Positions 5,673-43,708 are shown, counted from the first letter of the stretch. The stretch: 64,000 bases of DNA from a virus (IMGVR_UViG_3300042402_002841:32001-96000); one strand, 5' to 3'. A program made the numbers and translations. The notes: generated by a model not told the origin, from the letters alone.

Positions 5673-5678
5673 TGACTT

Positions 5679-5684
5679 ATTGTA
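5679..5684 (-). promoter_or_regulatory. -10 element (TACAAT) of a probable leaderless promoter for the polyprotein gene
   Basis: TACAAT lies 6 nt upstream of ATG 5672, with no Shine-Dalgarno sequence. Confidence 0.55.
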
Positions 5685-5912
5685 GAACACCTATCACGAT
5701 AGTGTATGAAGGTGTTACGAATGACTAGTGATTGTGTGTGTATTTGTTTGTGTGTGTGTTTTTGTTTGTGTCGTGAGCAGTGCCATACGAGCGTGTGCGG
5801 TTGCGATTACGAATCACTCTTAGCACATCTGTAATCGTTTGTCAAGTATTAGGTGAAACTATTTTTTGACCTCGTGAGCAGGTATCGTTATGCCACTGTC
5901 GTTGGCTTGACT

Positions 5913-22700: not shown

Positions 22701-23646
22701 TGTTGGCATCAGAAGGGCTAGATGTTACGGTTCTTTGGGCGTTCTGTCCTCTGGTTCTTTTCGCAGCACCTGCACCAGCCTCCCTCAGTACACTGCGAAC
22801 ATCAACACGACCACCAGTAGAGCGGTCATTTACGCCAGGAATAGCGGGTCTTTGGTATGGGGTTCCTTCTTGAACTAGGCCGTCACCGTCTCCGTCCCAT
22901 GCTTTGGGGTCAAAATTACCTGCCCTTCTTGCAAGCCTTGCAGCGCCACCAATTCTTTGGCCAATACCTTTTTGCTCAAGGGATTCTCCAAGGCTCTTCG
23001 TTTCAAGACCGTAGATAACTCCAATGTTTTTTCTTTCATCAGTTTGAATAATTGCGTTCTTTAACTTAATGCCCAATCTTCTTTCTGTTGAGCGACCTAA
23101 GTTGTTGTCAATTCTTTGTCTAAGTGATTTAATTTCCGCTTTTGAAGGCATTGAGTTATACATTGATTTTTCAAAGTTGAATGCGTAATTATTCGCTCTT
23201 GCCTCAAAAAGAAAACTACCTTCTTTGATTTGAGTTCTCATAGTAAGCGCCTTGTAATCAACTGCGCTTGAGTATTGAGTTGTTGTAAAATGACTTATCG
23301 GTGTGTCCATTACTGCTGGAACACGAGCACTATTATCTACTGAAAAAAAACCTTTATACAAATATGACTTTGATGAAAAAATGTCATTAGATGTAGATTC
23401 TTGATAACCAAGGGAATTAATTAAAGATTTTAATGAAATTTCGTTAATATTTTTAAATGGTCCTTGAATAACTCCAGCAGGAATTTGTGATGATTCAAGA
23501 CTTTTTGTATCAACAGAGTTTGCCCACTGTGCCCATTCTCTTCCAGCACCTTCAACTCCGTAGTGCCTAATGGACATACCATCTTTGACAACGATGGCAA
23601 ATTTTTCATTACGCAGAGCGTCAAATAGTATAGATACTTGTTTCAT
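19750..23646 (-). CDS. Multidomain protein: DGDGDG tag, GLAS motifs, ART-like region, C-terminal HipA/PI3-4K-like kinase domain
   Basis: GGSQPG..FYVK..ENEVL..LYERLGV..WLANWD..DNI..IIDTG kinase pattern; KRG..GAGEYWS..GYDGI ART-like pattern. Confidence 0.75.
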   Translation of the reverse strand: MKQVSILFDALRNEKFAIVVKDGMSIRHYGVEGAGREWAQWANSVDTKSLESSQIPAGVIQGPFKNINEISLKSLINSLGYQESTSNDIFSSKSYLYKGFFSVDNSARVPAVMDTPISHFTTTQYSSAVDYKALTMRTQIKEGSFLFEARANNYAFNFEKSMYNSMPSKAEIKSLRQRIDNNLGRSTERRLGIKLKNAIIQTDERKNIGVIYGLETKSLGESLEQKGIGQRIGGAARLARRAGNFDPKAWDGDGDGLVQEGTPYQRPAIPGVNDRSTGGRVDVRSVLREAGAGAAKRTRGQNAQRTVTSSPSDANRSGLASRTQANKEITDMVRDVLSKKSTSDDLRSLVNSRGSDGSTKLTKNQKDRINEHIDDFDNGEYENMEDFMSDVVNVLQNRPSGAKKPGQSGMRSRVSTARTQRQVDGLASRSSKAKKKSKLKGTPGRDRVDDKDGQLWESLTPEQKDVVEKNTKQAYQDLMEDIKKRNGDWWSSFLSQNTKQKKTAAIDADGKEWSQDSRIAGEALTSLTLAIEDASDDVRLEVSRLEGTLSSASPEEAPKIQKKIDKLKKDFEREQKALDDLRTFDQMQKSDDWSLLEHLHPETRQKSFGKKIPTAKKGNYEEVKQALPTGEPSTIFEEVGGAKRQKARLGKKADTKLADFARRITRPNPERAERRRLRKTGRGVAVEDIEEASDKASPLKRRIRRAKNQFLLNVKKRRDAEAIESKVNSTLNKNFHAFRKPDGSIVIDDKAVSILAGMSGKFKVSKRKGAKGEAVVTNEGAKKVLKGLWNGNAYNALPTWIREDEIPDLIEQGWIPIKRGFEKEAYADIWLNSPKRHVPGQGMAVVGAGEYWSYQDGGWESYFGGKDGKQADGVIGMVKKDRIATSAQANSFREHHRILNNAVDAYITGPGSGGRWDKELNAQELAQEIEETLSKMIPADSDVWNTEWGKLYQGVFSWMKTVGPKETAKKDQAIETLKFLNRMADADATVHAGFLGYDGIDFGFGDGRIVMHNRGAMVAVNQPMILADIKKVGKGERVKATDKKTKVKKSSRKGGGSSGSLDNKSWKQVGPQGGSQPGAEFEDPNGKKFYVKKQKSQLHAENEVLMSKLYERLGVRAAKNSGGTAHISGQSSGPGVFSEWLDGSRSVNHSAEVRNPKWKKSVQDTFVASAWLANWDGTGNGDNIKMGADGEAYIIDTGGAGLFRARGDSKGSAFGPIVGEMESLRAPGINSLGAMYFSDIPAQEIARQVASIGALSDADIRKMVNDVVTDSAEAKNLADTLIARRDYLVQTWGTGVKK

Positions 23647-28505: not shown

Positions 28506-31500
28506 CTATAAAAACTTAATGTCTGATGACTTGTAGTGTAATTGTTTTAATTGCTCAATTGGAACATCAAGAAATTCTGAAAGCATTTTAAAGTGCTCCT
28601 CTTTAGGCATAAAAAACTTTGTTTTTTTGCCAGGAAACATATATGTCATCAGTTCTGCAATATATTCACTTTTCTTTGTCATTGCGTATCTGCTAATTTC
28701 TCCAGCCAATTCCTGGTCTTCTGCGCTTAGCGAATAATTAATCAAATCAATTTTTTCAATGCCATTTCTCTCTGCATAAGAAATTGCTTCTTCTAGCCTG
28801 TCAATTTGTTCAGCAGTATCTTGTTCATACTTTTTTCTTGCTTTTCGGTTTTTACCCATAGCCATTGCATGAATAGTGTGACTGAGTTCGTGTCTCAAGA
28901 TGTCATCTGTAGGGATGGGCCAGTCAACGGCTTTTGATACAACCTCTTCTTGGTTCACCACTCTTGGTGGAAAAGCCAAAAATCCATATTCTGGGAAATA
29001 CTCTCCTTCAATAGATTCCCACCTGTAAGGGTCTTGATACATTTGTTCCCTATTAAATCTTCCAGGTGCGGCTCCATTTTTTGTAACAATCATTGGAGGT
29101 ATGTCAAATTCTCCAAGAAGTTCTTCAAAACCTGGAGAATCATTTAATGTTTTGTCCAACTTGGCGTTCAATCTGGATTGAGCCTCCCAGTCAATTTCCA
29201 TAATATTTATTAAATCAAGTATCTCTTGTTCACTCTTTTTGCCTTGAGTAAATGGAGATTCCTTGAGAATACTGAGCAACTCTGAGGTGTTTGTTGGTAT
29301 TGCTCTTGAAATAAGTTCTTGCCTTGTTTTAGGTTTTTCGCGAGGCTTACTATCTACTCTAAATTTTTTTGTAATTTTTTTACCAGAGCGTCTTGCTGCC
29401 GAAGATGACGCAAGACCAGTTCTTCCTGATTCTTCAAACATGTCTTCAAACGGGTCGCTGTATGGAACAGATGGAACACTTGGCGCTTCTGGTGAATAAT
29501 CTTCAAATGGGTCAGAAATAGATGGACTAGAAAATGCGGCAGGTACTGTCTCTTCAGCAAATGGGTCATTGAGTGAACCCCCAGACCTTGACGCTAAAAG
29601 ACCAGTCTGATATTCGGACCACCCTGGCTGATTTGCTAAAGCAGGATTATTGTCAACCGACTGGTTGCCCGAAGAATCACTTACATGTTCAGTCCATACT
29701 TGACCGTTAAAGTACCTAAACTGACCTGGCTTAGATGGGTCTGGACTCCACCCTGCTGAAGCACCAGGTCCAACTGCATCTGGTTTTTCTCTTCCCTCTC
29801 TCCGACGCCTAAGGCGCTCTCTAGCGCTTCCAGCAATTTCAAAAGCCTGTCCTCTTGCCGATTCTGTTAGTTCTGATACTTTTTCTCTAGTTGCTTCCGC
29901 TAGTTCTAAAGAACGCTCCTGAAATGCGGAACCCATTTCAAGTGCTTTTCTTCTGTTTTCTTCTGTCAGTAGTCTGTCTCTGGTTGCTTCTGCTGCTTGA
30001 ATAATTTCATCTGGCAAACCTTCTGATGCAATCCTATTTAATCCATGCTTTATTATTTTGTCCGCAACAGATTGGTCAATCATTCCACGCTCAACCATTA
30101 CCTCTAGTGCTTTTTCTCCCGCATCTCTACCACCTCTTCTTGCGAGTGGGACTATTGCTCCAGCAGGTCCACCAGCGGAAAATCCAATTGCCATTTCTCC
30201 AATTAGTTGAACAACATCTGCTTGTTCTGGGTTGACCCCAACTCTTTCAATAAGTTTTCTTCCAGTCCTACTTCCAAGCATTCTGCCCACCGCAGTGGCG
30301 GTCATGCTTCCACTAGGTGTAAAACTCGCAAGACCACCTCTGTCGTCTTGTTCCTCACCCATGATTTTTGCAGACTGAATTGAAGGAATGGAATACATGG
30401 AGCCAGGTTCGGTGTCTGCGATTGAATCAATTTCAATTTCTACAACAATGTCTTCCTCTATAACCGTTTTTTCAAGCGCTTGCATTGCTGGGGATGCAGA
30501 ATCAATATCGCTATCAGTTACAGAATCAGGAGGGGTAATGCCATGCCTTCTAAATGCACTCAAAACTTCTGCATTTGATTCAAGTTCAAACTCTAAATCT
30601 GGAGCAGAACGAGAAGCCAGATAAGAAATGGGAGGATTATCGGAAACAAAATCAATTGCTTCTATTTCTTCTGCGCTTAATCTTGCTTCTTGAGAAGATT
30701 TTCTTAATGCATTTCTTCCTACTGAAGCACCAAGCCTGTCAGGATATGGCCCATTTTCTACAATCGTAAGAATGTCATGAACTGCTGGTGCAAAACCACG
30801 ACCTACTCTCTGAAAGAGTGATTCATACATTTCAATTTCTTCTTGGATTTGTTCAAGGTCTGCTCGGAATTCACTAATATCATCATATGTGTCTGTAGTG
30901 CTTGTGTTTCCTTGTTGTCTTCTTTCTTCGTATCTTCTTCTTGCTTCTTCTGACTTTATTTTAAACTCATTTGCCCCATTACGAAGATGAGTAATAGCAG
31001 ACATAAGTTTTCTTTTTTCTTCTGGGGTTATGTTTTCCCCTCTTTGTGCCTTTTGTCCAATTTCTTCAAGTTCCTCAAAAGACATACCCATTGTGTCTAC
31101 AAGGTTGTTTAAAAGTTCTTTTTTCTGCGTATCTCTAAGGCGGTGTCCTTTTCTGATGCGCATATTTCTCGCACTTCTAAACATTCCCCACAAGCCACCT
31201 TTGCCATCTTCTCCGTAAAGATGCTCCTCAATGTCTTGGTTGGTAAATCTTTCTTCCTTAATCATTCGTGGAACTTTGCCGTGTCTATCCTTTTCAAATG
31301 GGTCAACAGGACCACGGGGTGTTCTTCCTGTGGGTGCCGAAGGACGACGGGGTGTCTTTATTACTCCTGCGCCTTCGGGAAGCGTCGGCTCAACCAACAC
31401 TCCTGGAGTGATTGGTCTCTTAGGTTTAACTGGCTTAGGTGAATCAATCGGAGCATCTGGTCTTCTCCCAGGAATAATTAAATCACCATCTGGCACTGGT

Positions 31501-33740
31501 GGTGCTCCAGGAACTATTAATGGACCCCAGTGAGGAGATGTTGAGCCAGGAATAATAAGCCCACTTGGTGAGGGCGGTACAGAATCTATTATTTCTATTT
31601 CTTTTTCTGGCAAGAAAGCGTCAAGGACTTCATCAACTTCTGGATTATCTCCTATTAATCCAACTTCTCTGTTTGCAACAAGTTCTGCGTGCGTTTCAAA
31701 AAACGCCAAATTTCTAGCCTGATTAAACGCACGAGGGTTTCTTGTGTCCGCAAGTACACCGAGAGCCTCTTGTTGCTTGACTTGAGAATATTGGCCTGCA
31801 AGAGCATCAAGTCTTCTATCAATTAAATCATTAAAACTTATTCCAAAAACTTGAGCAATGTTTTCATCAGAAGCAGTGTCAATAAATTCTTGCACTACAG
31901 ACATGAGTTCACTGTTAGTTAATGCGTCAAAGTTTTCATCAGGATAAGAAAGTTTGAACCATTCAAATACTGCGTCGTATTGTTTTTTGTGGGTCATTTC
32001 GTGTGCGCCAACTTGGGCACCAAAGTCTTCCCATCCGTTCCCAGCCTCAGCCGCAAGGTCTGTTGAATATGTTTCAACCCACCTTCTTGATTTTTCGTCA
32101 CCACTCATGGCTTCCGTGATTGCTCTCCATTGGTCATCAATGTCGCCACCAGTAGCCTCATAAAGGTCCATGTATCCAGGACCTGGACCTTCTCTGTACC
32201 CCTGTATTGCTGGACCAGAACCTATGTAGATATCTGTCGGGCGAGCGACACCGCCTAACCCTTCAAAATCAAAGTTGCTCCTCCCTTTACTATCAACAAA
32301 GTAACCGAAGTCAACATATATTTCAAAAGGCTTACCGTTTTCAGTTTTAAAAGTTTCTGGATTTTTTGATGCTTCAACAAGTATTTGTTTAAAAGCACCA
32401 ATTCTGAATTTTTTTTCTCTTTCAATTGCTGCGTCAATAAAATTTGTTATGGTGTCGGGTATTCCATCTCTCTTTGCTTCTTCATATGCTGCAATAATTG
32501 CATCTTTGTCTAGCAAGCCAGTTTTTCTTCTTATGGCATCAAGATGCATTTCTACCGTTGTATCAATTACCCACTTTTCATGTTCTTCTGGGGACCCGCC
32601 CATAAATAATTTTTCAAATTGACCAGGAAGAGATGGCGCATCTGGGTCTTCGCTTTGACCAGAACTAAATGGCGCATCTGGGTCTTCGCTCATCGCTCTA
32701 AAAATTTCACCTAAAGCAAGGTATTCGTCTGGCTCCGTAATGCCGTATTTTGTTTTTAAGTCGTTGATGACTTTGTTTTTTTCATCCCTAACCCTGTTCA
32801 TTCTTGCTTCTGCGCCTCTTGTTGCATCCATGACATCTCTCACTCTTGCAACCACGCTTGAAACATAGGAAGGGTCATCTTCTCCTGCGTCGCCAACTAG
32901 TCCTTCCCCTATTCCAGCCCTTGATGCAAGACTCCTCAAGCCATCAATACCGTTCTCCTTGTAGGCTTTTCTAATCTCATAAGCAGACACACCTATATTC
33001 ATAAGCGATTCTGTGACACGAGACCTATTGCCTGGAGCGCTCATGATATTGCTTAAAGAACTGGCAATGTTTTGTATTTGGCTCGCAGAAATACCAAAGC
33101 AACCCTCTCCTCTTTCGTTGGTAAACCTGTTTGCGGCAGGCGTTCCTGGTGGACACCTAAACTTACCGAGTGAGTCAATAACTAACCCCATGGCTCTTGC
33201 CGCTCTTGCCGCAAGTTTTCCTGCAGGGTTTCTTTCACCAATAGTTTTTCCCAAAGATTTTATTTCTGGCTCAAAACCCTGAGACTTCATTGGTTCTCCA
33301 GTTTTTGGATTTACTGGATATCTAGTAACTTTTGCTACTGCTGTTTTTGGTTTTGGAAGACTATTTGTTGGTGCATTGCGGTCCATCCAACCCCAGTTTG
33401 GTACTGGGTCTGGAGAACGAAGCGCTTCAATTCTTTCTGACTCTGTTACATAGTGTTTAAAATACTGACCTTCTTTTTTAGTTGCGTCAGGGTCATAAAC
33501 AACGCCATTAATATTTTTGTAATTTGTTCCCTTTTCTAGTCCACGCTTTTTTCCGTCAGTATTGGGACTAGTAGGCATGGCGACCTTGACTGATACATCG
33601 GCAATTAATCTCTCTGATGTAGAGATAATTTTATTGCCAGCCTTGAATGTCAATGCAGCAGCGTCTGCGTCAAGGCGTGTTGTTCTGCTATTGAACCCAG
33701 GTGCGTAATGGCGAATTTTATTGATGTTCACCCCCGTCAT
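28506..33740 (-). CDS. Giant multidomain protein: RCPxG tag, two HExxH metallopeptidase domains, DUF2510-like motif, GLAS motifs
   Basis: AHEMTH; RHELSH..SRYAMTKKSEYIAE; AGWSPDPSKPGQFRYFNGQVWTEH. Confidence 0.8.
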   Translation of the reverse strand: MTGVNINKIRHYAPGFNSRTTRLDADAAALTFKAGNKIISTSERLIADVSVKVAMPTSPNTDGKKRGLEKGTNYKNINGVVYDPDATKKEGQYFKHYVTESERIEALRSPDPVPNWGWMDRNAPTNSLPKPKTAVAKVTRYPVNPKTGEPMKSQGFEPEIKSLGKTIGERNPAGKLAARAARAMGLVIDSLGKFRCPPGTPAANRFTNERGEGCFGISASQIQNIASSLSNIMSAPGNRSRVTESLMNIGVSAYEIRKAYKENGIDGLRSLASRAGIGEGLVGDAGEDDPSYVSSVVARVRDVMDATRGAEARMNRVRDEKNKVINDLKTKYGITEPDEYLALGEIFRAMSEDPDAPFSSGQSEDPDAPSLPGQFEKLFMGGSPEEHEKWVIDTTVEMHLDAIRRKTGLLDKDAIIAAYEEAKRDGIPDTITNFIDAAIEREKKFRIGAFKQILVEASKNPETFKTENGKPFEIYVDFGYFVDSKGRSNFDFEGLGGVARPTDIYIGSGPAIQGYREGPGPGYMDLYEATGGDIDDQWRAITEAMSGDEKSRRWVETYSTDLAAEAGNGWEDFGAQVGAHEMTHKKQYDAVFEWFKLSYPDENFDALTNSELMSVVQEFIDTASDENIAQVFGISFNDLIDRRLDALAGQYSQVKQQEALGVLADTRNPRAFNQARNLAFFETHAELVANREVGLIGDNPEVDEVLDAFLPEKEIEIIDSVPPSPSGLIIPGSTSPHWGPLIVPGAPPVPDGDLIIPGRRPDAPIDSPKPVKPKRPITPGVLVEPTLPEGAGVIKTPRRPSAPTGRTPRGPVDPFEKDRHGKVPRMIKEERFTNQDIEEHLYGEDGKGGLWGMFRSARNMRIRKGHRLRDTQKKELLNNLVDTMGMSFEELEEIGQKAQRGENITPEEKRKLMSAITHLRNGANEFKIKSEEARRRYEERRQQGNTSTTDTYDDISEFRADLEQIQEEIEMYESLFQRVGRGFAPAVHDILTIVENGPYPDRLGASVGRNALRKSSQEARLSAEEIEAIDFVSDNPPISYLASRSAPDLEFELESNAEVLSAFRRHGITPPDSVTDSDIDSASPAMQALEKTVIEEDIVVEIEIDSIADTEPGSMYSIPSIQSAKIMGEEQDDRGGLASFTPSGSMTATAVGRMLGSRTGRKLIERVGVNPEQADVVQLIGEMAIGFSAGGPAGAIVPLARRGGRDAGEKALEVMVERGMIDQSVADKIIKHGLNRIASEGLPDEIIQAAEATRDRLLTEENRRKALEMGSAFQERSLELAEATREKVSELTESARGQAFEIAGSARERLRRRREGREKPDAVGPGASAGWSPDPSKPGQFRYFNGQVWTEHVSDSSGNQSVDNNPALANQPGWSEYQTGLLASRSGGSLNDPFAEETVPAAFSSPSISDPFEDYSPEAPSVPSVPYSDPFEDMFEESGRTGLASSSAARRSGKKITKKFRVDSKPREKPKTRQELISRAIPTNTSELLSILKESPFTQGKKSEQEILDLINIMEIDWEAQSRLNAKLDKTLNDSPGFEELLGEFDIPPMIVTKNGAAPGRFNREQMYQDPYRWESIEGEYFPEYGFLAFPPRVVNQEEVVSKAVDWPIPTDDILRHELSHTIHAMAMGKNRKARKKYEQDTAEQIDRLEEAISYAERNGIEKIDLINYSLSAEDQELAGEISRYAMTKKSEYIAELMTYMFPGKKTKFFMPKEEHFKMLSEFLDVPIEQLKQLHYKSSDIKFL
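32633..32690. repeat. In-frame direct repeat, 36-nt period (SEDPDAP x2)
   Basis: ATGGCGCATCTGGGTCTTCGCT at 32633 and 32669. Confidence 0.85.
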
Positions 33741-33757: not shown

Positions 33758-35212
33758 CTAGATTGTTGGGTCTGTATCTTTGACCTCTGCCTCAAGAAGT
33801 TCAAACTCAATGAGTGATGCCATAAGGTCTGAATCTACTTCACCAGACTTTTCTTCAACTACTTTTGCTCCACCAGTAACCCAGTTGGCAGGAATCAACT
33901 TCTCTTGTCCAAGAGCCTTTGCTCTCTTCATGATGTGCTTTTTGGCTGCTTCTTTGTCTTTGGCGCGACCAAATGCGCTAATTGCATTCTTTAGGTCGTC
34001 AGTGTTGGAAATTGGATAAGAACCGTCTGGAAGAGCAGTTCCTTCTTTTGCCATCTGTGTACGAACATCCTCACTGAATGCTCTCTTAAGGGCGATTTCT
34101 GCGGCTTCTGCCTCAATTGCTTCTGCCTCTTCTGGCTCGTACTTGTCGTATCCAAGAACTTCGCCATCAAGTGAAACGAAAACATCGTAGGACTTTCCGT
34201 CAACGCCTTCAATTTCAACGGCGTATGAATCAAATCCTTCAAAAATGTCTGGCTCAACAGCGATTACTTCACCCTCAATTGACTTAACAGCAATTTCTGC
34301 TGCTTCATGGAAATCAATAACCATCATTGAGTCAAGAGCGGACTTTTGTTCAAAAGCGTTGTCATCAAGTTTATGGAAACCAAGAACTTCTGCAGTTGTT
34401 CCATCAATGTAAACCTCAACGGCTCTTCCGTCTTTTGCCTGAACATCAACAACAAACATGTCCGCATCAGACGAGTAGCCAGAGTCAAGAACCTTGCCCT
34501 TAAACATCTGCTCTGCAATACCCTCTACTGAAAGCAAGCCTGGCATTCCACGCTCTGGAACACATCCACCAGGACAATCGTCACAAACTCCCGAACCACC
34601 AGGGTAAACCTTGCGCTCAATTGCACACATGTAGGCGTTTCTTCCGAGTTCAGCAGACTTTTCCCCAAGGCTCATCAGACGCTTTTTTCTGGCTGCCTCA
34701 AGGTCTGTGCCACCCATGTCCGACATATCGTCGTCTTCTTCCTCTTCTTCGTCCTCTTCTTCCTCTTCGTCGTCATCTTCGTCGTCTGCATCCATATCAA
34801 CAGGCATTTTTTTCTTAGAGGTTGGCATTGAGGTCATTTCCTCATCGTCTTCATCTTCTTCTTCGTCGTCGCCAGGCATTCCCATTCCCATGCCCTTTTG
34901 GCGCTTTTTCATCTCTTCCATCATCATGCCGTCGTCCCAGTCTTTACCACCTTTTTCGTAGTAATCGTCGGACTCCGTGACGGGAACCATTTTCATTTGC
35001 ACTGGCATTGCACCGCACTTGCCGCAAACCTTTGCTCCTGGCGTATAACCGCAGTCGGCAGCGTTTGCGCCTTTTGCGCACTTGAGAACATTGCCGTCTG
35101 CATCAACGCTGACTTCAACTTTTTCGTCCATTATGAACTCCTGTTGTCGGTGAGTAAGGACACGAATGTCAATACCAAGTGTGAATCTGTTTGTAAAAGT
35201 ATAACTTAGCAC
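33758..35212 (-). CDS. Acidic protein with Cys clusters, PepSY-like repeats and a DUF6582-like C-terminus (likely start ATG 35131)
   Basis: CGKC, CDDC; D/E tract; EAAEIA..EGEVIAVE..YAVEI..GKSYDVFV..DGEVL; ALPDGSYPI..DLKNAI..GRA; AGGAG before ATG 35131. Confidence 0.75.
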   Translation of the reverse strand: MLSYTFTNRFTLGIDIRVLTHRQQEFIMDEKVEVSVDADGNVLKCAKGANAADCGYTPGAKVCGKCGAMPVQMKMVPVTESDDYYEKGGKDWDDGMMMEEMKKRQKGMGMGMPGDDEEEDEDDEEMTSMPTSKKKMPVDMDADDEDDDEEEEEDEEEEEDDDMSDMGGTDLEAARKKRLMSLGEKSAELGRNAYMCAIERKVYPGGSGVCDDCPGGCVPERGMPGLLSVEGIAEQMFKGKVLDSGYSSDADMFVVDVQAKDGRAVEVYIDGTTAEVLGFHKLDDNAFEQKSALDSMMVIDFHEAAEIAVKSIEGEVIAVEPDIFEGFDSYAVEIEGVDGKSYDVFVSLDGEVLGYDKYEPEEAEAIEAEAAEIALKRAFSEDVRTQMAKEGTALPDGSYPISNTDDLKNAISAFGRAKDKEAAKKHIMKRAKALGQEKLIPANWVTGGAKVVEEKSGEVDSDLMASLIEFELLEAEVKDTDPTI

Positions 35213-35281: not shown

Positions 35282-38200
35282 CTAATTTTTATTAATAAAT
35301 GTAGACATTGCGGCTTCGGAAACTTTTTCAAGCAGTTTTGAATACCAATCAATTCTCTTGTCTCCGCCTATTTCAATTTGGTTATCAAGAGCAAACATCA
35401 AACCTTCAAGAACAAGGTCTGCTTCATCGTCTGTCAAGTAGATACTTCCAACATTGGTTCTTCTGCTGCCAGTCTTTGATGCTTCATTTCTTCTAATAAC
35501 TTCTTGAAGTTTGCTTAGACCATCTTCAGCCTTTTTGTTCTTTGCTTTTTGTGCTGCTCTAATTTCTTTTTGTAAAGAAGTTTCAATATCTTTAAAGAAT
35601 GTGGCTTCATCGGTAATCATTGCTTTTGGTCTTGATGTGGAAGCAAGTCCAACTCTTGACCTCTTACCTTTGTCTGCCTCCTGCTTGCTTCTCATTTCTT
35701 CAATAACTTGACGAGCAACTTCGCTGATTTTCCTCATCTCGTTATCGCGTCTGGCGTTAGATTGAGGCATTTCTCTAGTTCCAGGTCTTGGTCTGTCAGC
35801 ATCTCTTGAGCGTGAGCGCGAGGCGAGACCACCAGAACGAGGTAAGTCATCAATAATCCATGGGTCCTCGGCATACTTGGCTTGCGTTTTGGAAAGTTGT
35901 CCAAGAAGTCTATTTGCTGAAGAAACACTAAGTTTTTCGTACTTATTTTCGCCAGGAGAGTTTGTCTCAATGTAATCCTCAAGTGCTTCAATTGCGTCAT
36001 TAATTGACTTCTTTGTCATATCCCTATCGCCAAGTAAGTCGTTAACTGTTTCCCAAATATCTTCAGAAACAATGTCAATTTCGCCATCAAAATCAAGTTC
36101 ATTAAGTTTATTTTTAATGTCTTGAATTTTTTCTTGGTAAGACTGTAACTCTTCTTCTCTTTGTTCTTTGCCTTCTTTGGCGCTTGCTTTTGGCTTGTAT
36201 GTTTTTTGTGAACCTTGAGTTTTTTCTTTTTCTTGTTGACGCTTTTTTCTTGCGTCACCTTGTCTTTCAATCTCTCTTGGGGAAATTTCTCTTGCCTGCT
36301 CTTCTCTTTCTTCGTTTCTCCGAGCACGACGCTGTTCTGGAGTCATAGAGCGTCTTTCTTCACGCTCCATGTCTTCCATAACTTTTTTAATTGCTCCCTG
36401 ATATGCGGCTTGAGACATCTTTTCGTTTTTGTCTTTAACTTTTTCTGGGTTACCTTCGTACATTAACCATTCAAATTTTTCATCATTTGTCAATTCATCC
36501 CAGTTATCTGGTTTTGCATCATCAAGGGAAAGTCCATCAAATTTAGTATTTTCTGCACCCCTAGTTGAGCCCCTGCCAGTGCCAAAATTGCCTCTTTCGT
36601 TGGCTGAAAGACCAACATCTCCGAGCCCTCTTGCACCAATTCCTCCTGGTCGCGCAGTTCTTCTCTCTTTATCGTTGTCACCAAATCCACCAGAAGATTC
36701 AAGACCAACTCTTCCCCTTCTTCCAGAACCACTGGCAGAACCAGGCCCAAAGTTTTGGTACATGGTGCGGAGTCGTTTCCACTTTGATGCTGCCAATTGA
36801 CCATCGTTTGCTTCAAAATCCCTAAGAGCATCTTGTACGAGTTGTAGATTGTTCGCTCTACCACTTCTTGCCCAGAAAATATAATCTTTCTGCATTGCTT
36901 CAGTTATGTCTGCTGGTGCACCGTTATTGGGTTTTCTTCCTTTATTGGTTGATGCAAGCCCTCCGCCCCTAATATTGAGGCTGGAGTATTCACCGTCATT
37001 GGATTCTGCTGCCTGTTCAAGAACACCAAGAAGGTCTGATGAAACCATTCCGCTTCTTGACTTTGATTGCTCAATTGCTTTAATCAAATCTTCGTACTCG
37101 TTATCATCAATTGAGAATTTGCCATTATTTGATTTTTCAAGTTTTTCAGAAACCGCTTTAAGAATATTTTTGTTTTCAGCAGTACGAGAAAGAAGTTCAA
37201 CCTCGTCCCTGAGTGAACCGATTTCGTCTTCCGTAAGTTCAATATCAAGTTTCTTGTGAGGATTTATTGTTCCACTTTGACTGGAGAATGCTCTTGTTTT
37301 TTTAATACGCCTTGCCCCTGCTTGTCCTGAAAGCCTTGTTCCAGACCTCTCAAGTGCTTCAGTGCTGTAATAACCATCTTTTGATTTCTTTGTTTTCTTC
37401 AAAGAATCAATCAGTTCGTCAATCGCTTTTTTATCGCCTTCATTATCAACTGCACCAAAGTTATTCATTCTGGTCAAAGTGTCAACATAATTATCAATTT
37501 CATCATCAGTCATTGGGATTGCATCATTTGCAACACTACTGTCATCAATTTTGTCAATTATATTTTTAAGGATTTCCATATCCTCATCTGAGCCAACACC
37601 GCCAACTTGCGAATCATCAAGATATTTTTCTAAAACATTTTGAAGTTCGCCATACTCTTCAAGAGTCATATCCATCTGTCGGTTTTCGGAAGCCAAACCT
37701 TCTCTTACCGCACGAGCATTTCTTCCTCTGTCTATGTTTTCGGATGCTGCATCGCCGACTGGGTCGTCAGCCATTCCTCTTCGTGCGCCTGGATTTCTTG
37801 GTCCAAATGCTTCGTCATAGTCTGTGTCGTCATCAAAATTTGAACTAGAGGCAAGACCTGAACGACCTTCTCTATCTTGTCGCTCTTGTCTTTTCTTTCT
37901 AGTAATTCCAATTTCACGCTGACGAAGTTTTGATGGCTCCATCTTGAGTAATTCTCCAGTTTGCTCAAGCGTTAGTCCACTTCTTAAATAAAGAAGGTCA
38001 TCTTCATCGTTTTCTTTTCTTAATTTTGCTGTCAATCTTCTCTCTGTTCTGCGAACTTCTCTCGGCGACATTCCAAATAGTTCAGCAGTATCACGAACAC
38101 TCAAGCCAGAGGCTCTGTACATGAGAAGGTCCATGTCTGAATTTGCCCCAGACTCAGAGTTTTGACTTAGTCTTCTAAATTCTCTATTTGCAGAAGATTT

Positions 38201-41200
38201 TGCAACCCTTGCACCACTCAGGTTGTACTTTTCAGCAATTTCTTTTGCTGACATTCCAGATAGAAAATCTCTAAAAATATCATTATCAGGAATTTGAGTA
38301 CCGTCTTCTGAAACGGTGCGAACTGGTCTTTGCAGGTTTCTTTCACCCCGTGTAGATGCTCTACTCTGTGAAGCCAATCCACCTCTACGGATATCATCTG
38401 GAACATATTGAGCAGGTTTTCCGCCTTCTCTAATAACACCACCGTCAGGAACGCCAGTTAGTTGTTCAATTTCATCATCGCTTAAACCAAGTTCTCTAAG
38501 TTTTTTGAAAACATTTTGGTCAAATTGCGCTCTTCTTTCGCGAGCCTCAGTTGGGTCAACATTTCCTCTTTCATCTCTCTGAATCTGACCATCTCGGCCA
38601 AGCATTGTGCCGTCTCCACGGCGAGATGTTGAAGCAAGACCTCCAGTAAGTGTCCGTTTTGCTCTTACTCTTTCTTGTAAGAATTCAGAATTTAGCCTTG
38701 CATCTTCAAGTTCATCCATAACCCCCTCATTTAGCCCGTTTTTAAAATAATCTTCCCAAAGCGAATTGATTTGTGGGTCGTTTGGATTTTCTTCAAATCC
38801 TTTTTTAGTTGCTCTTTGCAACTCTTTAGAAAAATCCTCTAAATCAATTGATGGGTCTAGTTCTATTATGTTTTCAACTTCAAACCAAAAATCCGCTTCG
38901 CTCATATCTGGCTCTCCGCTTTGAAGTGCCTGAATTAAATTTTCTTTTTTCTGAGACGATTCTTTTTTAGCGTCTTGAATTTCCTTATCAGTTGGTGGTT
39001 TGTTTGCCGACAGGCGACGAGCAGTTTTAAATACCGAATCTGACCATTCATCAACCGTTTCTTCAATCAGTTCATTAATTTTGTCTTCTTGTTTTCTAGA
39101 AGCGTTTTTAGGCATCATTCTTTCTGCAAGCATGCCTCTAACTGCGTCTGTTAAAGCCCTACCAACATCTTCGGATATATATCTATCAAAATTTCTTTCG
39201 CTGCTTTGCAGATTGAGATAATCATCAAAATCTCCGTTTTTTATTGCATCAAGGAAATTTTTTTTAGTTTCAGACAGCATTTCTTCGTCGTCATCAAGAT
39301 TTGAAATTATGTTTTTAAGTATGTCTGCATGTTTATCTGGGATACCGCTTCTATCAATAAATTTGTCCGACACGGGCTTTGAACCAGGACCGCTAACAAT
39401 TTCTCCCCTAAGAACTTCTGGTTTTTTTTCTACAGAAGTTGAAGCAAGTCCGCTTCTTCTCTTTTTTGCGAAGATGGATTCTGGATTCCATGAATCTGGG
39501 TTTTCCCAAGTTCTTTCGCTAAAAAAATCATAAACTTCGTCGTCAAATACTTTTTCTAAGCCCGCCTTACTGACAACCCCTTCATATTTTTCGTTAACCG
39601 CTACACCATATTGTTCTAGCAATCCAGCAAGAATATCTGAATCTTTTTCGGTGCCGTTTGCTAATTCAGTAAGTTTTTCTTTCATCTTTGTTTTGTCTTT
39701 AAGATTTAAGATGTCTAAAACTTCTTTTGAATTTTCTAAATCAAACTCTAAATCGTCTTGATAAAACTTACGAAGACCTTCAGCACTTTCAACGATGTCG
39801 TCAAGAAGTTTTTCATCAGAGCGAACAGCGTCAAGCATCGTTGTGCCCACTCTGCTTCCTGGTTCTCCCCCTGAATAATGAAAAAACGCTCTAGCCAACT
39901 CTTCGTTAGTTCTGTCTTCAAACCATTCTTCGTGGTCTTGTTCACGGGGGGTTAAACCTCTATATGAGGCTAGACCTTGTCTTTTTGGCTCTTTGGGAGT
40001 AGGGGTTTGTCTTCCTTGATTAAATGCACGAGTTGCTGCTTCAGCATCTACTCGGCCACCAGTGGACCTGTCGTTAACACCTGGGATTGCAGGGCGCTTA
40101 AATGGTGTTCCTTCTTGGACTACACCGTCTCCGTCACCATCCCATGCGTTTGGGTCAAACCTTGCCGCCCCTCTGGCGGCTCTGCCCAATTTTCCCAAGC
40201 CTCCGCTTAGCGTGCGCCCCAGGGCTTTTTCGGCCACGCTAATGGCCTCTATAAATTCGCTAGTGACACCAGATGTAACCACGATTCCGTCTTCTGTTAC
40301 ATGCGATTCAACTCTGTGGTAATCAAAAATTGGGTCAAGAAGTTGTTTTGTTTGAAAAGCGTTCTCAATAGGAACTGGGATTATATAGTCGCTCTTAACT
40401 TCAACATCTTTTTCTGCGGACGCAATTACTTCTTGCAGGTTTTCAAGAATGGCCTTGAGTCTTGACATGTTCTTACCACTAAGGGCACGCCCAACTTTTA
40501 CATCAAGTGAGTCAGAAATAATATTTGCTAGGTCTGCAAAATCTTCATCAAAAGACCATTTTTCGTCATTCTCGTAAGACTTTGGCATAATTATGCCATT
40601 CTCACCCATGTCGTCGCCCATATAGGCATTTCCTTGAGGTTTTACCTGCATTGGCATTGAAGGCATTTGTGAAGGAACAACGACTCGTGAGCCAGATTCT
40701 TCCGAAGATGGCATGTAAACGGTTTGCACAGAAACCTTTTCTGGCTTACCAAACATGAACTCTCTACCTGTGTAGTGGTACGCAACTCTGTAGGTTGTAG
40801 GCGCACCGTCTGGTGTCATTCTGTCAAAAATTACTGTATTTTCTTCTGCGAGACGAACTTTTACTGGAGCACCAGCACGGACAGCCAATTCAATCTCTAA
40901 TTGATTCTTGCGCTCATCTCCCACTCTTGGCTTATTTGCTTCAAGAATGTTAGGGGTTGGCCTTTGGTGTCTGTGCGGTATTCCACGGTTGCTTTGCAAC
41001 ATCAACATTCCGCCCTTGGAATCATCAATCATGGTTGAATCATCTGACTTTACTGAAATTGTTCCAGTCAACTGGTTGGCACCATGTAGAACTGGCGAAA
41101 CTTCGTAAAGTTCTACTTCTTTTAAGATGTTGGCCTGAAGATTGGGGTCAAAAATTGAATCAAGAGTCTTATAGCCGATTGACCATTCTTGTTCTTGTCC

Positions 41201-41551
41201 AAAAAAAGCCACATTGGCAAATGCTTCTCGTCCTTTTTCGGAACCTAAATTAAATTGAACTTTCGCATAAAGTCCACCAATTCCAGCCGTAAGCATTTTT
41301 GAAGGAAGTCTTCTGTCTCCAGGAGCAACTTCGTAGATTTCTAGCACCTTACCAATAGGGTCATTCCAGTTGTGCCCCCAAACAACACGAGGCTTTCTTC
41401 TTGTAAGGCTCTTTGTGAAGGCTCCAGAAACAAGAACATCTCCAACAGAATCTTTATTTCCAATACCAGCCACAAAGCATTCAACCATACCCTGTGCTTC
41501 GTCAATGTTGAACTGGCCTGGAATAGCCTTGAATTCAATGTTCTGGTTCAT
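35282..41551 (-). CDS. HK97-family prohead protease fused to a ~1900-aa GLAS-punctuated extension
   Basis: N-terminal DSVGD..GAF, WGHNW..PIG, WSIGY, LKEVELYEVSPV..GAN; then DGDGDG tag, 9 GLAS plus 1 GLES, and tandem sigma-region-4-like HTHs. Confidence 0.9.
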   Translation of the reverse strand: MNQNIEFKAIPGQFNIDEAQGMVECFVAGIGNKDSVGDVLVSGAFTKSLTRRKPRVVWGHNWNDPIGKVLEIYEVAPGDRRLPSKMLTAGIGGLYAKVQFNLGSEKGREAFANVAFFGQEQEWSIGYKTLDSIFDPNLQANILKEVELYEVSPVLHGANQLTGTISVKSDDSTMIDDSKGGMLMLQSNRGIPHRHQRPTPNILEANKPRVGDERKNQLEIELAVRAGAPVKVRLAEENTVIFDRMTPDGAPTTYRVAYHYTGREFMFGKPEKVSVQTVYMPSSEESGSRVVVPSQMPSMPMQVKPQGNAYMGDDMGENGIIMPKSYENDEKWSFDEDFADLANIISDSLDVKVGRALSGKNMSRLKAILENLQEVIASAEKDVEVKSDYIIPVPIENAFQTKQLLDPIFDYHRVESHVTEDGIVVTSGVTSEFIEAISVAEKALGRTLSGGLGKLGRAARGAARFDPNAWDGDGDGVVQEGTPFKRPAIPGVNDRSTGGRVDAEAATRAFNQGRQTPTPKEPKRQGLASYRGLTPREQDHEEWFEDRTNEELARAFFHYSGGEPGSRVGTTMLDAVRSDEKLLDDIVESAEGLRKFYQDDLEFDLENSKEVLDILNLKDKTKMKEKLTELANGTEKDSDILAGLLEQYGVAVNEKYEGVVSKAGLEKVFDDEVYDFFSERTWENPDSWNPESIFAKKRRSGLASTSVEKKPEVLRGEIVSGPGSKPVSDKFIDRSGIPDKHADILKNIISNLDDDEEMLSETKKNFLDAIKNGDFDDYLNLQSSERNFDRYISEDVGRALTDAVRGMLAERMMPKNASRKQEDKINELIEETVDEWSDSVFKTARRLSANKPPTDKEIQDAKKESSQKKENLIQALQSGEPDMSEADFWFEVENIIELDPSIDLEDFSKELQRATKKGFEENPNDPQINSLWEDYFKNGLNEGVMDELEDARLNSEFLQERVRAKRTLTGGLASTSRRGDGTMLGRDGQIQRDERGNVDPTEARERRAQFDQNVFKKLRELGLSDDEIEQLTGVPDGGVIREGGKPAQYVPDDIRRGGLASQSRASTRGERNLQRPVRTVSEDGTQIPDNDIFRDFLSGMSAKEIAEKYNLSGARVAKSSANREFRRLSQNSESGANSDMDLLMYRASGLSVRDTAELFGMSPREVRRTERRLTAKLRKENDEDDLLYLRSGLTLEQTGELLKMEPSKLRQREIGITRKKRQERQDREGRSGLASSSNFDDDTDYDEAFGPRNPGARRGMADDPVGDAASENIDRGRNARAVREGLASENRQMDMTLEEYGELQNVLEKYLDDSQVGGVGSDEDMEILKNIIDKIDDSSVANDAIPMTDDEIDNYVDTLTRMNNFGAVDNEGDKKAIDELIDSLKKTKKSKDGYYSTEALERSGTRLSGQAGARRIKKTRAFSSQSGTINPHKKLDIELTEDEIGSLRDEVELLSRTAENKNILKAVSEKLEKSNNGKFSIDDNEYEDLIKAIEQSKSRSGMVSSDLLGVLEQAAESNDGEYSSLNIRGGGLASTNKGRKPNNGAPADITEAMQKDYIFWARSGRANNLQLVQDALRDFEANDGQLAASKWKRLRTMYQNFGPGSASGSGRRGRVGLESSGGFGDNDKERRTARPGGIGARGLGDVGLSANERGNFGTGRGSTRGAENTKFDGLSLDDAKPDNWDELTNDEKFEWLMYEGNPEKVKDKNEKMSQAAYQGAIKKVMEDMEREERRSMTPEQRRARRNEEREEQAREISPREIERQGDARKKRQQEKEKTQGSQKTYKPKASAKEGKEQREEELQSYQEKIQDIKNKLNELDFDGEIDIVSEDIWETVNDLLGDRDMTKKSINDAIEALEDYIETNSPGENKYEKLSVSSANRLLGQLSKTQAKYAEDPWIIDDLPRSGGLASRSRSRDADRPRPGTREMPQSNARRDNEMRKISEVARQVIEEMRSKQEADKGKRSRVGLASTSRPKAMITDEATFFKDIETSLQKEIRAAQKAKNKKAEDGLSKLQEVIRRNEASKTGSRRTNVGSIYLTDDEADLVLEGLMFALDNQIEIGGDKRIDWYSKLLEKVSEAAMSTFINKN

Positions 41552-41662: not shown

Positions 41663-43708
41663 CTAAATTATATGAGACCCCATCGCCCATGCTCTCCTGG
41701 TCTCATCTTCTGCTATTTGTGATTTCTTTTTAGCAAGGAGGTTTGTAAATGTACCAACAAGCGATGTTCTCAAAGTCGTTGCTTTGTCTTCCTCGCCAAC
41801 GACGCCAAGTGTTGCAAAAATTGCGTTATTAATTTCTTGAGCAGTTTCTTCGTTTATTGACTTAATTCTTAACATTTGAGAGTTAATATGAGCAATAATG
41901 TCCTCTTTTTCAAGAGAGGTCTTAATAAGAGACTTTTCAGAATATGTACTTTGAGCATCATTGATAATTGCATTCAAGACTGGCCTGATGTCTTCATCCA
42001 TTTGTTTGGCCCAAATATCTGAACTAAATATAGATTCAACATCAAGTGCTCCAATAGCCAACTGCTTTCTTGCTTTTACGCCAGATGCTTTTTCAAGAAC
42101 AACACGCTGTTGTCTTTCAAAGATTCTTTCAAGACTTCTGTCAAGAATCTCAGTCCATCTATTAAATGTTGTTTCAACTCGCAATTCCCAATCCTTATTG
42201 GATTTTGTAGAAACAACCGAGTAGTTGGCGGAGGCCTGTGCTGGCGCTGTAGGCATGGCTGCTTGTTCTGGGGGCCCAACATTCGGCAACCCAGCACCTT
42301 GAGCCATTTCTTGCCCTTGCTGAGCCAAGGCCATTGCGCCTTCCATTGTGGTTGGGTCTGGGGGCATTGCTCCAGCATCTGCTCCTGGAGGCATTCCTGG
42401 GTCTCCTGGAGGCATTCCTGGCATCCCTGGTGCTCCGCCCATCACTCCAGCCTGAGGTGGTTCTTCCATCTTCTTCTTCGTGTTGGCAATAGGGGTTAGG
42501 TTTGGGTTCATCAAGAGAGAATCAGCAAGGTCGCTATCCACTTCTTTTCTTCCAGAGCCAATTCTGTATTCGTTTGTACTAATTAGACCTTGACTGAGTT
42601 CTTCTTTTAGATATCTTTGTCTTTCCTGTTCGTAAAGAATTAAAACAGGAACTTGCGAAGTATTAAAATCAATATAGTGGTCTTCATCAAGTTCATCTAA
42701 AGCACGAGCAATTGGTTCAAGATGAGGGAGCATTGTTTCGTTCCAAAAAACTCTAATCTCTTCTCCAGCGTTGGAAAATGTGCGACCAGCGGCATTTCCA
42801 ATAACTGATTCAGGTACACCGAAAGATGCAAGAATTTCTTCTTTTGTTATTTGTCGCATCTGAATGTAGGCAGCGTCTCTTGGGTTCGCTGATGTATCAA
42901 CAAAGTCTGCGCCATCATCGGAAGAAATAACCGTAGTTGCGCCAGCGCGAGCAATATTTCCTCTAAATCTGCTTTTCAACTCTTCTTTGTCGTCGTCATC
43001 AATTTCCCCACGAAGCACAAGAAGACCACCAGGTCTGCCGTCATTAAGAAGGTAATTACGATTATATACTTTTGCTAAATTCTCAATTTCAATAGCAATA
43101 CCAGCAGACTCAAGTGGAGTCATTGAAAGATAAGGGTCCAATGGATGAGGTCTGCGAATCCAAACCACATCTTTAGCCTTCATGTTTATAACACTGCCGT
43201 TGGGCATTCTCACTTCATATCCAGCAACAAAGTTTTTAGGGTCTGGAATCGGAGAGGTTGATTGTGGCGGTAATAGGTTGAGACCAATAACACCACCATC
43301 TCGCCCATAAATTTTTTCAATAAACACGCCTCTTGTGCTCATTAACAGTTGGGAAGACAACCTGTATCGGAATATAAAAGAATTTTCTCCGATGTTTGAC
43401 TTTGTGTTTAGTAATTTAAGTATTTCTGAATTTTTGGCTTTAGAGCCAGTAACAATCTCGCCGTCTGGTGAATTGTTTTTTCTTAAAACAATAGGCAAGC
43501 GTGCTTGATTTCCAGCGATTGCGTCAATACATCTAGCCACCCATGTGACCTTCTGCATGCCTTCTTTGTAGACACGCTCAATATCCCATGAATCATTATA
43601 TGCCTTACCAGCGAACCCAGGATTGTGGGCGATAGGCGCACCAGGACCAACGCTCTTGGAGGATTGATTACCGTTTAATGATTTATTTTGAAAATTATTC
43701 CAAGCCAT
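41663..43708 (-). CDS. Portal protein (HK97 family) with Pro/Gly linker and a MuF-like C-terminal extension
   Basis: VARCIDAIA, NDGRPGGLL, EILASFGVP, STNEYR; C-terminal RIKSINEET..SQIAEDETRRAWAMG. Confidence 0.92.
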   Translation of the reverse strand: MAWNNFQNKSLNGNQSSKSVGPGAPIAHNPGFAGKAYNDSWDIERVYKEGMQKVTWVARCIDAIAGNQARLPIVLRKNNSPDGEIVTGSKAKNSEILKLLNTKSNIGENSFIFRYRLSSQLLMSTRGVFIEKIYGRDGGVIGLNLLPPQSTSPIPDPKNFVAGYEVRMPNGSVINMKAKDVVWIRRPHPLDPYLSMTPLESAGIAIEIENLAKVYNRNYLLNDGRPGGLLVLRGEIDDDDKEELKSRFRGNIARAGATTVISSDDGADFVDTSANPRDAAYIQMRQITKEEILASFGVPESVIGNAAGRTFSNAGEEIRVFWNETMLPHLEPIARALDELDEDHYIDFNTSQVPVLILYEQERQRYLKEELSQGLISTNEYRIGSGRKEVDSDLADSLLMNPNLTPIANTKKKMEEPPQAGVMGGAPGMPGMPPGDPGMPPGADAGAMPPDPTTMEGAMALAQQGQEMAQGAGLPNVGPPEQAAMPTAPAQASANYSVVSTKSNKDWELRVETTFNRWTEILDRSLERIFERQQRVVLEKASGVKARKQLAIGALDVESIFSSDIWAKQMDEDIRPVLNAIINDAQSTYSEKSLIKTSLEKEDIIAHINSQMLRIKSINEETAQEINNAIFATLGVVGEEDKATTLRTSLVGTFTNLLAKKKSQIAEDETRRAWAMGSHII

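Follow-up and report, generated by a model that had tools for sequence, protein, structure and literature searches.

The 64,000-nucleotide (nt) window analyzed here (IMGVR_UViG_3300042402_002841:32001-96000) carries, at positions 35,282-41,551 of its minus strand, a single ATG-started open reading frame (ORF), open under the standard code, for a protein of 2089 amino acids (aa), designated P0001. The protein starts with a prohead protease of the S78 family and continues as a string of modules separated by ten copies of a short motif, GLAS or GLES. We consider it probable that P0001 is a protease-led polyvalent polyprotein, which would be packaged and then processed by its own protease at the motif, with part of the products serving in assembly and part being delivered as cargo.

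Protease domain and N-terminal region

The N-terminal part of P0001 was modelled up to the first motif copy, and three folded domains were distinguished within it:

41042-41551, minus strand: S78 (HK97 gp4-type) prohead serine protease, aa 1-170, recognized by Pfam and PHROG
40721-40924, minus strand: small alpha/beta domain D1, aa 210-277, predicted local distance difference test (pLDDT) score of about 94, conserved across the family
40217-40477, minus strand: helix plus alpha/beta domain D2, aa 359-445, pLDDT 91-95 over aa 391-440 in the AlphaFold2 (AF2) model

Residues 22-165 match Pfam family Peptidase_S78 (PF04586) with 40.8 bits against a cut-off of 21 (E 3.3e-10), and the N-terminus matches phrog_80, "head maturation protease" (E 1.4e-26), in agreement with the HK97-type protease of about 170 aa recognized in a preliminary description of this DNA. 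The further statement made there, which limits the fusion partners of such proteases to scaffold or capsid proteins, is incomplete: according to Iyer et al. 2017 (PMC5512222), assemblin-like peptidases also occur in polyvalent proteins, where they are rare and always C-terminal. Residues H60 and S124, the candidate catalytic histidine and serine, are invariant across 38 aligned homologues and likewise in 14 giant relatives.

In the AF2 model of aa 1-525, built from a 38-row alignment, the protease part reached a pLDDT of about 88. It is followed by disorder, D1, disorder, D2 and a disordered tail that reaches site 1. The top Foldseek match of this model in the PDB was T4 gp21 (5jbl, prob 0.99, E 0.024), and further matches were the proteases of Epstein-Barr virus, pseudorabies virus and human cytomegalovirus; E-values were weak overall (0.02-0.03) because the query was a 525-aa multidomain model. 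The prediction points to an assemblin-like fold of the S78 domain. Sequence and profile searches of the PDB with the protease found no relative, and searches of the ESM Atlas with aa 200-450 and aa 701-970 gave scores below 0.9 or no usable match.

The punctuation motif in P0001 and across the genome

Ten sites, each of 12 nt, were located in the ORF:

39965-39976, minus strand: site 1, GLAS, aa 526-529
39440-39451, minus strand: site 2, GLAS, aa 701
38630-38641, minus strand: site 3, GLAS, aa 971
38369-38380, minus strand: site 4, GLAS, aa 1058
37847-37858, minus strand: site 5, GLAS, aa 1232
37688-37699, minus strand: site 6, GLAS, aa 1285
36950-36961, minus strand: site 7, GLAS, aa 1531, in a linker with pLDDT <50
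36695-36706, minus strand: site 8, GLES, aa 1616, in a linker with pLDDT <50
35819-35830, minus strand: site 9, GLAS, aa 1908, in a linker with pLDDT <50
35639-35650, minus strand: site 10, GLAS, aa 1968, in a linker with pLDDT <50

The composition of P0001 predicts 0.07 GLAS, against the nine found beside the single GLES; 2000 shuffles of the protein contained 0.066 GLAS on average and 2 at most. All ten sites coincide with the positions given in the preliminary description. They divide the protein into segments of 525, 175, 270, 87, 174, 53, 246, 85, 292, 60 and 122 aa, several of which are acidic, as had also been noted (net charge -17, -21, -20 and -13). The five copies of a helix-cap motif reported earlier have to be corrected to four by a regular-expression search (aa 1293, 1345, 1437 and 2037; 0.08 expected), and a looser pattern gives six; in the model of aa 1285-2089 this motif is the strand-to-helix junction of a repeated beta-alpha-alpha unit. 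Since the GLES of site 8 reads GLAS in P0002, a homologue with 96% identity, this site may be weakened or lost in the present genome.

The motif is a genome-wide code common to giant virion proteins and is not private to the 2089-aa gene. Beyond P0001, 16 GLAS were found in four other giant ORFs of the head module and three in a tape-measure-like ORF. The window belongs to a 132,392-bp IMG/VR virus record, a single metagenomic contig with an estimated completeness of 88%. Within this record, 29 of the 31 G[LFM][AS]S sites fall in seven ORFs of at least 750 aa (2.45 per 1000 aa), and the remaining two in 126 other ORFs (0.07 per 1000 aa).

An extended consensus, R-[GS]-G-L-A-S-[STR]-[ST], emerges from the 25 sites in the five head-module giants, with R at position -2 in 16/25, G or S at -1 in 15/25, T, S or R at +4 in 19/25, and S or T at +5 in 19/25. 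They are encoded by 22 distinct 12-mers using all six leucine codons and both serine codon families. As the codons vary, it is the peptide rather than the DNA that is under selection, and a DNA-level repeat was rejected as the origin of the motif. Three protease families were searched for in the record: PF04586 gave one match, MPTase-PolyVal and ClpP none.

The maturation site of the HK97 capsid protein offers a known S78 site for comparison. The major capsid protein encoded in the window has the HK97 fold:

15440-16798, minus strand: HK97-fold major capsid protein, 452 aa

It matches PF05065 at 6.2e-44 and the HK97 gp5 chain 3qpr_A with a phmmer E-value of 6e-51. The mature HK97 chain (PDB, 282 aa) begins 103 residues into the 385-aa precursor, at S-L-G-S (S104-S107). 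As this site has the form small-L-small-S, the core of the punctuation motif shares its shape, and if the register is that of HK97, the cleaved bond would be the one preceding the G of GLAS. By analogy with the herpesvirus consensus, the bond between A and S would be an alternative. In the present capsid protein the counterpart of HK97 S104-L-G-S107 in the alignment is A145-L-P-S148; this stretch is kept in three related genomes and preceded by about 144 residues. The capsid protein also contains KSLGSS (aa 91-96), which has the shape of the HK97 site and is not conserved in relatives; YSALPSG (aa 143-149) is conserved.

Co-variation of the motif within a large protein family

A word-indexed search with aa 1-525 returned at least 333 homologues of 1148-3656 aa, from several sources and with the same architecture; those with a source name are called "HK97 family phage prohead protease" and nothing else. 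When 1.84 billion representatives were searched exhaustively with HMMER, 4026 matched at E ≤1e-3 and 293 at E ≤1e-30. The best 150 of these include 84 proteins with at least 1000 aa, of which 45 reach 2000 aa or more and 24 reach 3000 aa or more; the maximum is 5358 aa. Syntenic loci are present on many IMG/VR contigs.

The 15 closest homologues carry 8-15 GLAS each. Distant clades have few or none and repeat GFSS, GFAS, GMRS/GMAS, GLRS, [RK]LSSG or RFSSG instead, as in the 5358-aa protein (P0164) with its 21 copies of GFAS. The core common to the family is a hydrophobic residue (L, F or M) followed by A, S or R and then by Ser. In the cargo part of 121 proteins the median number of G[LFM]xS is 7, against 0.76 in shuffles, and 93 of the 121 have at least five.

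The variant used by a clade extends to its neighbouring giant genes. In a syntenic relative of 118 kb (G001), which is about 67% identical in the N-terminal region, 26 sites lie in giant ORFs against three elsewhere; 16 of these 26 are GF[AS]S, compared with 28 GLAS among 29 sites in the present genome. The dominant 4-mer of the polyprotein recurs in a neighbouring giant ORF in locus L047 (RLSS, 10 copies in the polyprotein and 5 in the neighbour), in L050 (FSSG, 10 and 8) and in L106-L109 (GMRS, 15 and 4-5), and in these loci the clade 4-mer was not found in portals or in any ORF below 600 aa. To judge from these sequences, the co-variation is the pattern expected from one common reader. It reaches a tail gene as well:

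57119-61672, plus strand: tape-measure/tail-lysin-like ORF, 1517 aa

This ORF has three GLAS, at aa 21, 580 and 589 (PGGLASATPRYGLASS), and its syntenic counterpart in G001 has one GLAS, at aa 43, and two GFAS, at aa 608 and 619 (GGGFASRTGAGGGGFASRTG).

Sites lie in linkers and border exchangeable cassettes

The C-terminal part of the protein (aa 1285-2089) was modelled with AF2 from a 33-row alignment (mean pLDDT 73). The model consists of helical modules, and all four of its sites fall in linkers with pLDDT <50 between confident modules. Module s7 is composed of four beta-alpha-alpha units and the terminal module s11 of two. P0001 has 11 site-delimited segments, and the models of aa 1-525 and aa 1285-2089 contain at least eight confidently folded units. 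A fold search with the C-terminal model found nothing at E ≤0.001 in the PDB or BFVD.

No Pfam domain is cut by a site. In this genome all seven domains checked (S78, helix-turn-helix (HTH), NUDIX, DUF3626, DUF3721, Zeta-like kinase and DUF2510) are intact, and the eight domains of relatives P0063, P0068 and P0024 are likewise uninterrupted. These relatives have a complete UvrD-type helicase between sites 1080 and 1934, a pentapeptide-repeat domain between sites 1094 and 1358, and an ArdC-N plus MPTase unit beginning 11 aa past a site.

For a cassette map, the 16 closest proteins were split at the motif and the pieces were clustered. The N-terminal unit and two C-terminal modules are present in all 16. 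The HTH module occurs in 13 of them, in 19 copies and at differing positions; other modules are found in 2-15 of the 16, one more is duplicated inside one protein, 15 pieces are singletons, and the order of modules differs among proteins. When P0001 is compared with its 83%-identical homologue L002, each switch between conserved and unrelated sequence falls at a site. The sites mark the borders of cassettes that come and go, are duplicated and change their order. The modular character attributed to the extension in the preliminary description is borne out by this comparison of module content between related phages, with cassettes swapped at sites that lie in predicted disordered linkers. A single continuous fold for the extension was rejected on account of the disordered linkers and the swapped cassettes.

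Conserved frame and variable cargo

Two regions of different conservation follow the N-terminal unit:

37700-39976, minus strand: variable cassette region, modules s2-s6, aa 526-1284, replaced in L002
37859-38380, minus strand: cassette "A" within this region, three tandem sigma-70 region-4-like HTHs, aa 1058-1231, 0-2 per close relative
35285-37699, minus strand: conserved collinear C-terminal block of helical modules s7-s11, aa 1285-2089
35285-35650, minus strand: conserved terminal domain s11, aa 1968-2089

Among 274 family proteins, 5 contain s2, 19 contain s3 and 39 contain s5. Modules s7, s8 and s9 were each found in 80-92, and the block s7-s8-s9-(s10)-s11 is collinear in 74, P0001 counted. 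The 122-aa domain s11 occurs in 135 and stands at the C-terminus in 132 of these; a tblastn search with it against cultured phages gave no match. The N-terminal 525 aa and the C-terminal 800 aa or so, about half of the protein, form a conserved frame that perhaps serves assembly.

The only recognized cargo domain of P0001 is the triple sigma-70 region-4-like HTH, which scores just under the Pfam cut-off (Sigma70_r4_2, 25.2 bits against 25.7); relatives carry PF04545 and PF08281. PADLOC, applied to the four giants that lie whole within the window, matched no family. The cargo of 14 giant relatives includes MPTase-PolyVal (in 7), ArdC-N (7), KTSC (5), UvrD helicase (5), sigma-70 region 4 (2) and pentapeptide repeats (1). 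Sister giants of the present genome carry NUDIX, Zeta-like kinase and DUF3626 domains. The earlier suggestion of DNA mimics or anti-defence factors as cargo finds support in the ArdC-N/MPTase domains (7 of the 14 giants) and pentapeptide repeats of the relatives, but not in P0001, which offers only the triple HTH.

The DGDGDG box

A region of about 50-100 aa is the only similarity among four of the five site-bearing giants (BLASTP E 1e-8 to 1e-23):

40040-40240, minus strand: DGDGDG box of P0001, FDPNAWDGDGDGvVQEGTPFkRPAIPG, aa 438-504
about 22815-22896, 18560-18644 and 5440-5519, minus strand: DGDGDG box in three other giants

Its consensus is FDPNAWDGDGDGxVQEGTPFxRPAIPG, with a weak match to phrog_7924. 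The box always lies upstream of the first site, both here and in G001, and was found in 95 of 121 family proteins; a tblastn search against cultured phages gave no match. We suspect that it is a common signal for incorporation or anchoring, for which the targeting propeptides of T4-type internal proteins provide a comparison. Alternatively, it may be a loop of the Ca-binding type. A complex prediction with the portal (681 aa, 7-row alignment) and aa 438-525 scored 0.01 against a mark of 0.32, which speaks neither for nor against binding.

Proposed mechanism and alternative explanations

In the mechanism that we favour, the S78 protease would enter the assembling prohead in order to mature the HK97-fold capsid. 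Since the protease has to enter the prohead, all parts covalently attached to it would enter too. Once inside, it would cut its own chain at the linker motif, with the hydrophobic-x-Ser core found family-wide, and would also cut the four other giant head-module proteins at the motif. About ten folded modules would arise from each polyprotein. The frame (protease, D1, D2, box, C-terminal helical modules and last domain) would probably serve in incorporation or as core/scaffold, and the middle cassette modules would most likely stay inside the head and reach the host together with the DNA. The cargo would here comprise the triple sigma-70 region-4-like HTH protein and several acidic helical proteins, and in relatives ArdC-N/MPTase, UvrD-type helicases and pentapeptide-repeat proteins.

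Several observations weigh against this mechanism. Conservation and collinearity over about half of the extension suit a role in assembly better than effector cargo. For the HTH cassette, stand-alone homologues of 95-305 aa are lacking, and the other modules of P0001 match nothing in Pfam, PADLOC, the PDB, BFVD or the ESM Atlas. The capsid protein lacks R-x-G-L-A-S, its aligned site being A-L-P-S. On the distinct contigs L039 and L043, the partial 1526-aa ORF adjacent to the polyprotein has no exact copy of the polyprotein motif. In an alignment of 137 proteins no protease column tracks the motif class, so that no determinant of specificity emerged; most of the columns with the highest scores belong to the variable linker that follows the protease and reflect phylogeny. 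As no column follows the motif, the protease may accept any hydrophobic-x-Ser sequence, with lineage-specific habits. The co-varying sites of the tape-measure-like protein are not explained by a protease confined to the head. The ORF, its protease domain, the statistics and genome-wide distribution of the motif, its co-variation and linker position, the evolution of the cassettes and the cargo domains are observed; cleavage at the motif, the S78 domain as the responsible enzyme, the bond that is cut, retention in the capsid and ejection are all steps that we infer.

In a farther-reaching reading, this lineage of tailed phages would follow a true polyprotein strategy for its virion cargo: the prohead protease would both carry and process an exchangeable set of effector cassettes, and a single evolving hydrophobic-x-Ser code would punctuate all giant proteins travelling with the DNA. 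Because the tape measure bears the co-varying code, this code, and perhaps a co-delivered protease, may also act outside the prohead, e.g. during or after ejection. We regard this extension of the mechanism as unlikely; were it true, a head-maturation protease would be an injected enzyme. The same tape-measure sites, conserved in position and co-varying (GLAS here, GFAS in G001), also speak for the motif being a linker or recognition element that S78 does not cut in the prohead and that is cut after delivery by a host or co-ejected protease or serves as a docking, modification or export signal for proteins travelling through the tail. The lack of a protease column correlated with motif class points the same way, as do the MPTase domains of relatives, which are proposed as autoprocessing enzymes by Iyer et al. 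(PMC5512222). In this genome, though, neither MPTase nor ClpP gave a match, the motif is similar to the site at which the HK97 capsid protein is matured, and short motifs read by prohead proteases have precedents in T4-like and phiKZ-like phages, such as AXE in SPN3US (PMC10052503). We therefore hold a reader other than the S78 protease in the prohead to be unlikely.

The conserved part of the extension could also be taken to mean that the whole of it is a giant internal scaffold or core, cut at the motif into pieces of a size that can leave the prohead before DNA packaging and giving no stable or ejected products. The C-terminal 800 aa form a conserved, collinear and helical stretch, acidic in part, with the last domain terminal in 132 of 135 proteins; the helix-cap motif marks a repeated beta-alpha-alpha unit; and cultured relatives fuse the protease to a scaffold-like C-terminal part. 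Such a role nevertheless seems quite unlikely for the whole extension, given that the cargo of the family includes complete enzymes and DNA-binding or anti-restriction domains, that the middle region turns over cassette by cassette, and that a 484-aa scaffold-like gene and an N-terminal extension of the capsid protein are already present. Pieces of 175-290 aa are, moreover, large for exit through capsid pores. That the long ORF is an artefact of assembly or annotation, with genes fused by sequencing errors, is most improbable: the standard code gives an uninterrupted frame, the same architecture recurs in at least 333 independent long homologues, and syntenic loci lie on many contigs. An artefactual ORF was rejected because of these many independent homologues.

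Comparison with known systems

Polyvalent proteins were defined by Iyer et al. 2017 (PMC5512222), who predicted their packaging and the proteolytic release of their domains. P0001 and its relatives resemble polyvalent proteins in size, in the large number of domains (2-15), in the virion-gene context of phages that package by way of portal and terminase, and in being predicted to enter the capsid and to be delivered with the DNA. Domains common in polyvalent proteins, namely ArdC-N, MPTase-PolyVal (7 of 14 giants here), helicases, HTHs and NUDIX, recur in the family. Unlike the polyvalent signature, P0001 itself lacks ArdC-N and MPTase. In the passages of Iyer et al. consulted, there is no punctuation motif, genome-wide co-variation or frame-plus-cassette layout. 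In the literature consulted, the family with an N-terminal protease and its punctuation motif were undescribed, and the supplementary architecture lists of Iyer et al. might include such proteins. We found no precedent for the combination of an N-terminal S78 fusion, an evolving genome-wide code, a frame with cassettes, and a family of this size and abundance.

In phages SPN3US, phiKZ and T4, many head-internal proteins are cut at one short genome-wide motif (AXE in SPN3US), according to PMC10052503. N-terminal propeptides that may target proteins to the prohead and the large protein mass ejected into the host are further points of likeness; the differences are that the substrates there are separate genes, the protease is a stand-alone enzyme of the S77 type, and mostly a single N-terminal propeptide is removed.

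Homology between P0001 and herpesvirus assemblin is detectable only as fold (Foldseek E about 0.03). In the herpesvirus pUL26-type precursor a protease of the same fold stands at the N-terminus, joined to an assembly polypeptide whose C-terminal end binds the capsid protein, and assemblin frees itself and its partner at short Ala-Ser sites inside the procapsid. This precursor has two sites and one scaffold partner, against the ten or more sites and the exchangeable cargo here, and its consensus, (V/L)-x-A|S, is in another register than G-L-A-S. HK97 gp4 and gp5 share the protease family (Pfam S78) and the capsid fold with the present virus, and the core of the punctuation motif is similar to their site, K|S-L-G-S. 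The HK97 protease gp4 is small and carries no cargo, and HK97 is not known to have giant internal proteins. The polyproteins of RNA viruses, single products cut by their own protease at a short code into numerous functional proteins, are a functional analogy only; their proteases are unrelated, and they serve genome expression rather than virion cargo.

The closest cultured relatives are the Gordonia myoviruses Chidiebere and GMA6, with 40-44% identity in the protease and 43-44% in the large terminase (TerL). Chidiebere (L031, 7796-40320) has two genes annotated as "head maturation protease", gp28 of 218 aa and gp34 of 452 aa. The latter is a protease-scaffold fusion, whereas the scaffold-like part sits here in a separate ORF of 484 aa. 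Between portal and capsid, Chidiebere has an RNA ligase, an ADP-ribosyltransferase toxin-like gene and a 971-aa HTH protein, all as separate genes, and no punctuation motif was found in its head module. These separate genes are likely the unfused counterpart of the cargo array.

If the motif is a cut site, it provides a readable code for dividing giant metagenomic phage proteins, which number in the hundreds, lack annotation and reach 5358 aa, into functional units. The proposed mechanism, if true, would yield a large catalogue of candidate capsid-delivered proteins, naturally delimited and many of unknown fold, and an S78 protease whose recognition motif is defined and whose substrates are numerous. 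It would join HK97-type maturation to the polyvalent-protein concept, the fusion making the loading of cargo automatic. In its behaviour the cassette region resembles an arms-race locus, and new anti-defence proteins may naturally be sought there. As a way of loading foreign proteins into capsids, one could try fusing them to the protease by means of a GLAS-type linker.

Genome context

The virus is a myovirus, with a T4-type TerL, a tail sheath and the HK97-fold capsid protein all encoded within the window, the GC content of which is 36-48%. On the minus strand the order is portal, polyprotein, acidic 484-aa protein, ORFs of 1744, 616, 198, 669, 1298 and 794 aa, and capsid protein; the S78 gene directly follows the portal gene, and the capsid gene (PF05065) lies downstream on the same strand. 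Besides those already given, the following features were distinguished:

41663-43708, minus strand: portal protein, 681 aa, no sites
33758-35212, minus strand: acidic scaffold-like protein, 484 aa, no sites
28506-33740, minus strand: 1744-aa ORF with two GLAS (aa 1136 and 1442) and DUF2510
19750-23646, minus strand: 1298-aa ORF with DGDGDG box and two GLAS (aa 318 and 425)
17001-19385, minus strand: 794-aa ORF with DUF3721 (aa 10-36), box, and Zeta-toxin-like P-loop kinase (aa 386-530)
3-5690, minus strand: 3112-aa ORF, N-terminal 1896 aa in the window, the rest continuing to genome position 28352

The Zeta-like kinase domain of the 794-aa ORF is bracketed by GLAS at aa 323 and 605 and is a candidate delivered enzyme. 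The 3112-aa ORF has the box at about aa 58, ten GLAS, a NUDIX domain (aa 1553-1682) and DUF3626 (aa 2915-3006); its counterpart in G001 has 3222 aa and 11 sites.

Residues 376-444 of the 484-aa ORF are homologous to the C-terminal part of protease-scaffold genes of Gordonia phages. This ORF shares its reading frame with the polyprotein, from which it is separated by a gap of about 70 nt with two stop codons, including that of the polyprotein itself. Its likely true start is a downstream ATG (MDEKVE...), and it contains two Cys clusters, a hyper-acidic tract and two PepSY-like repeats. The two ORFs look as if cargo had split an ancestral protease-scaffold gene. The closest cultured relatives by protease, TerL and scaffold-like motif all infect Actinomycetota, namely Gordonia, Arthrobacter, Microbacterium and Streptomyces.

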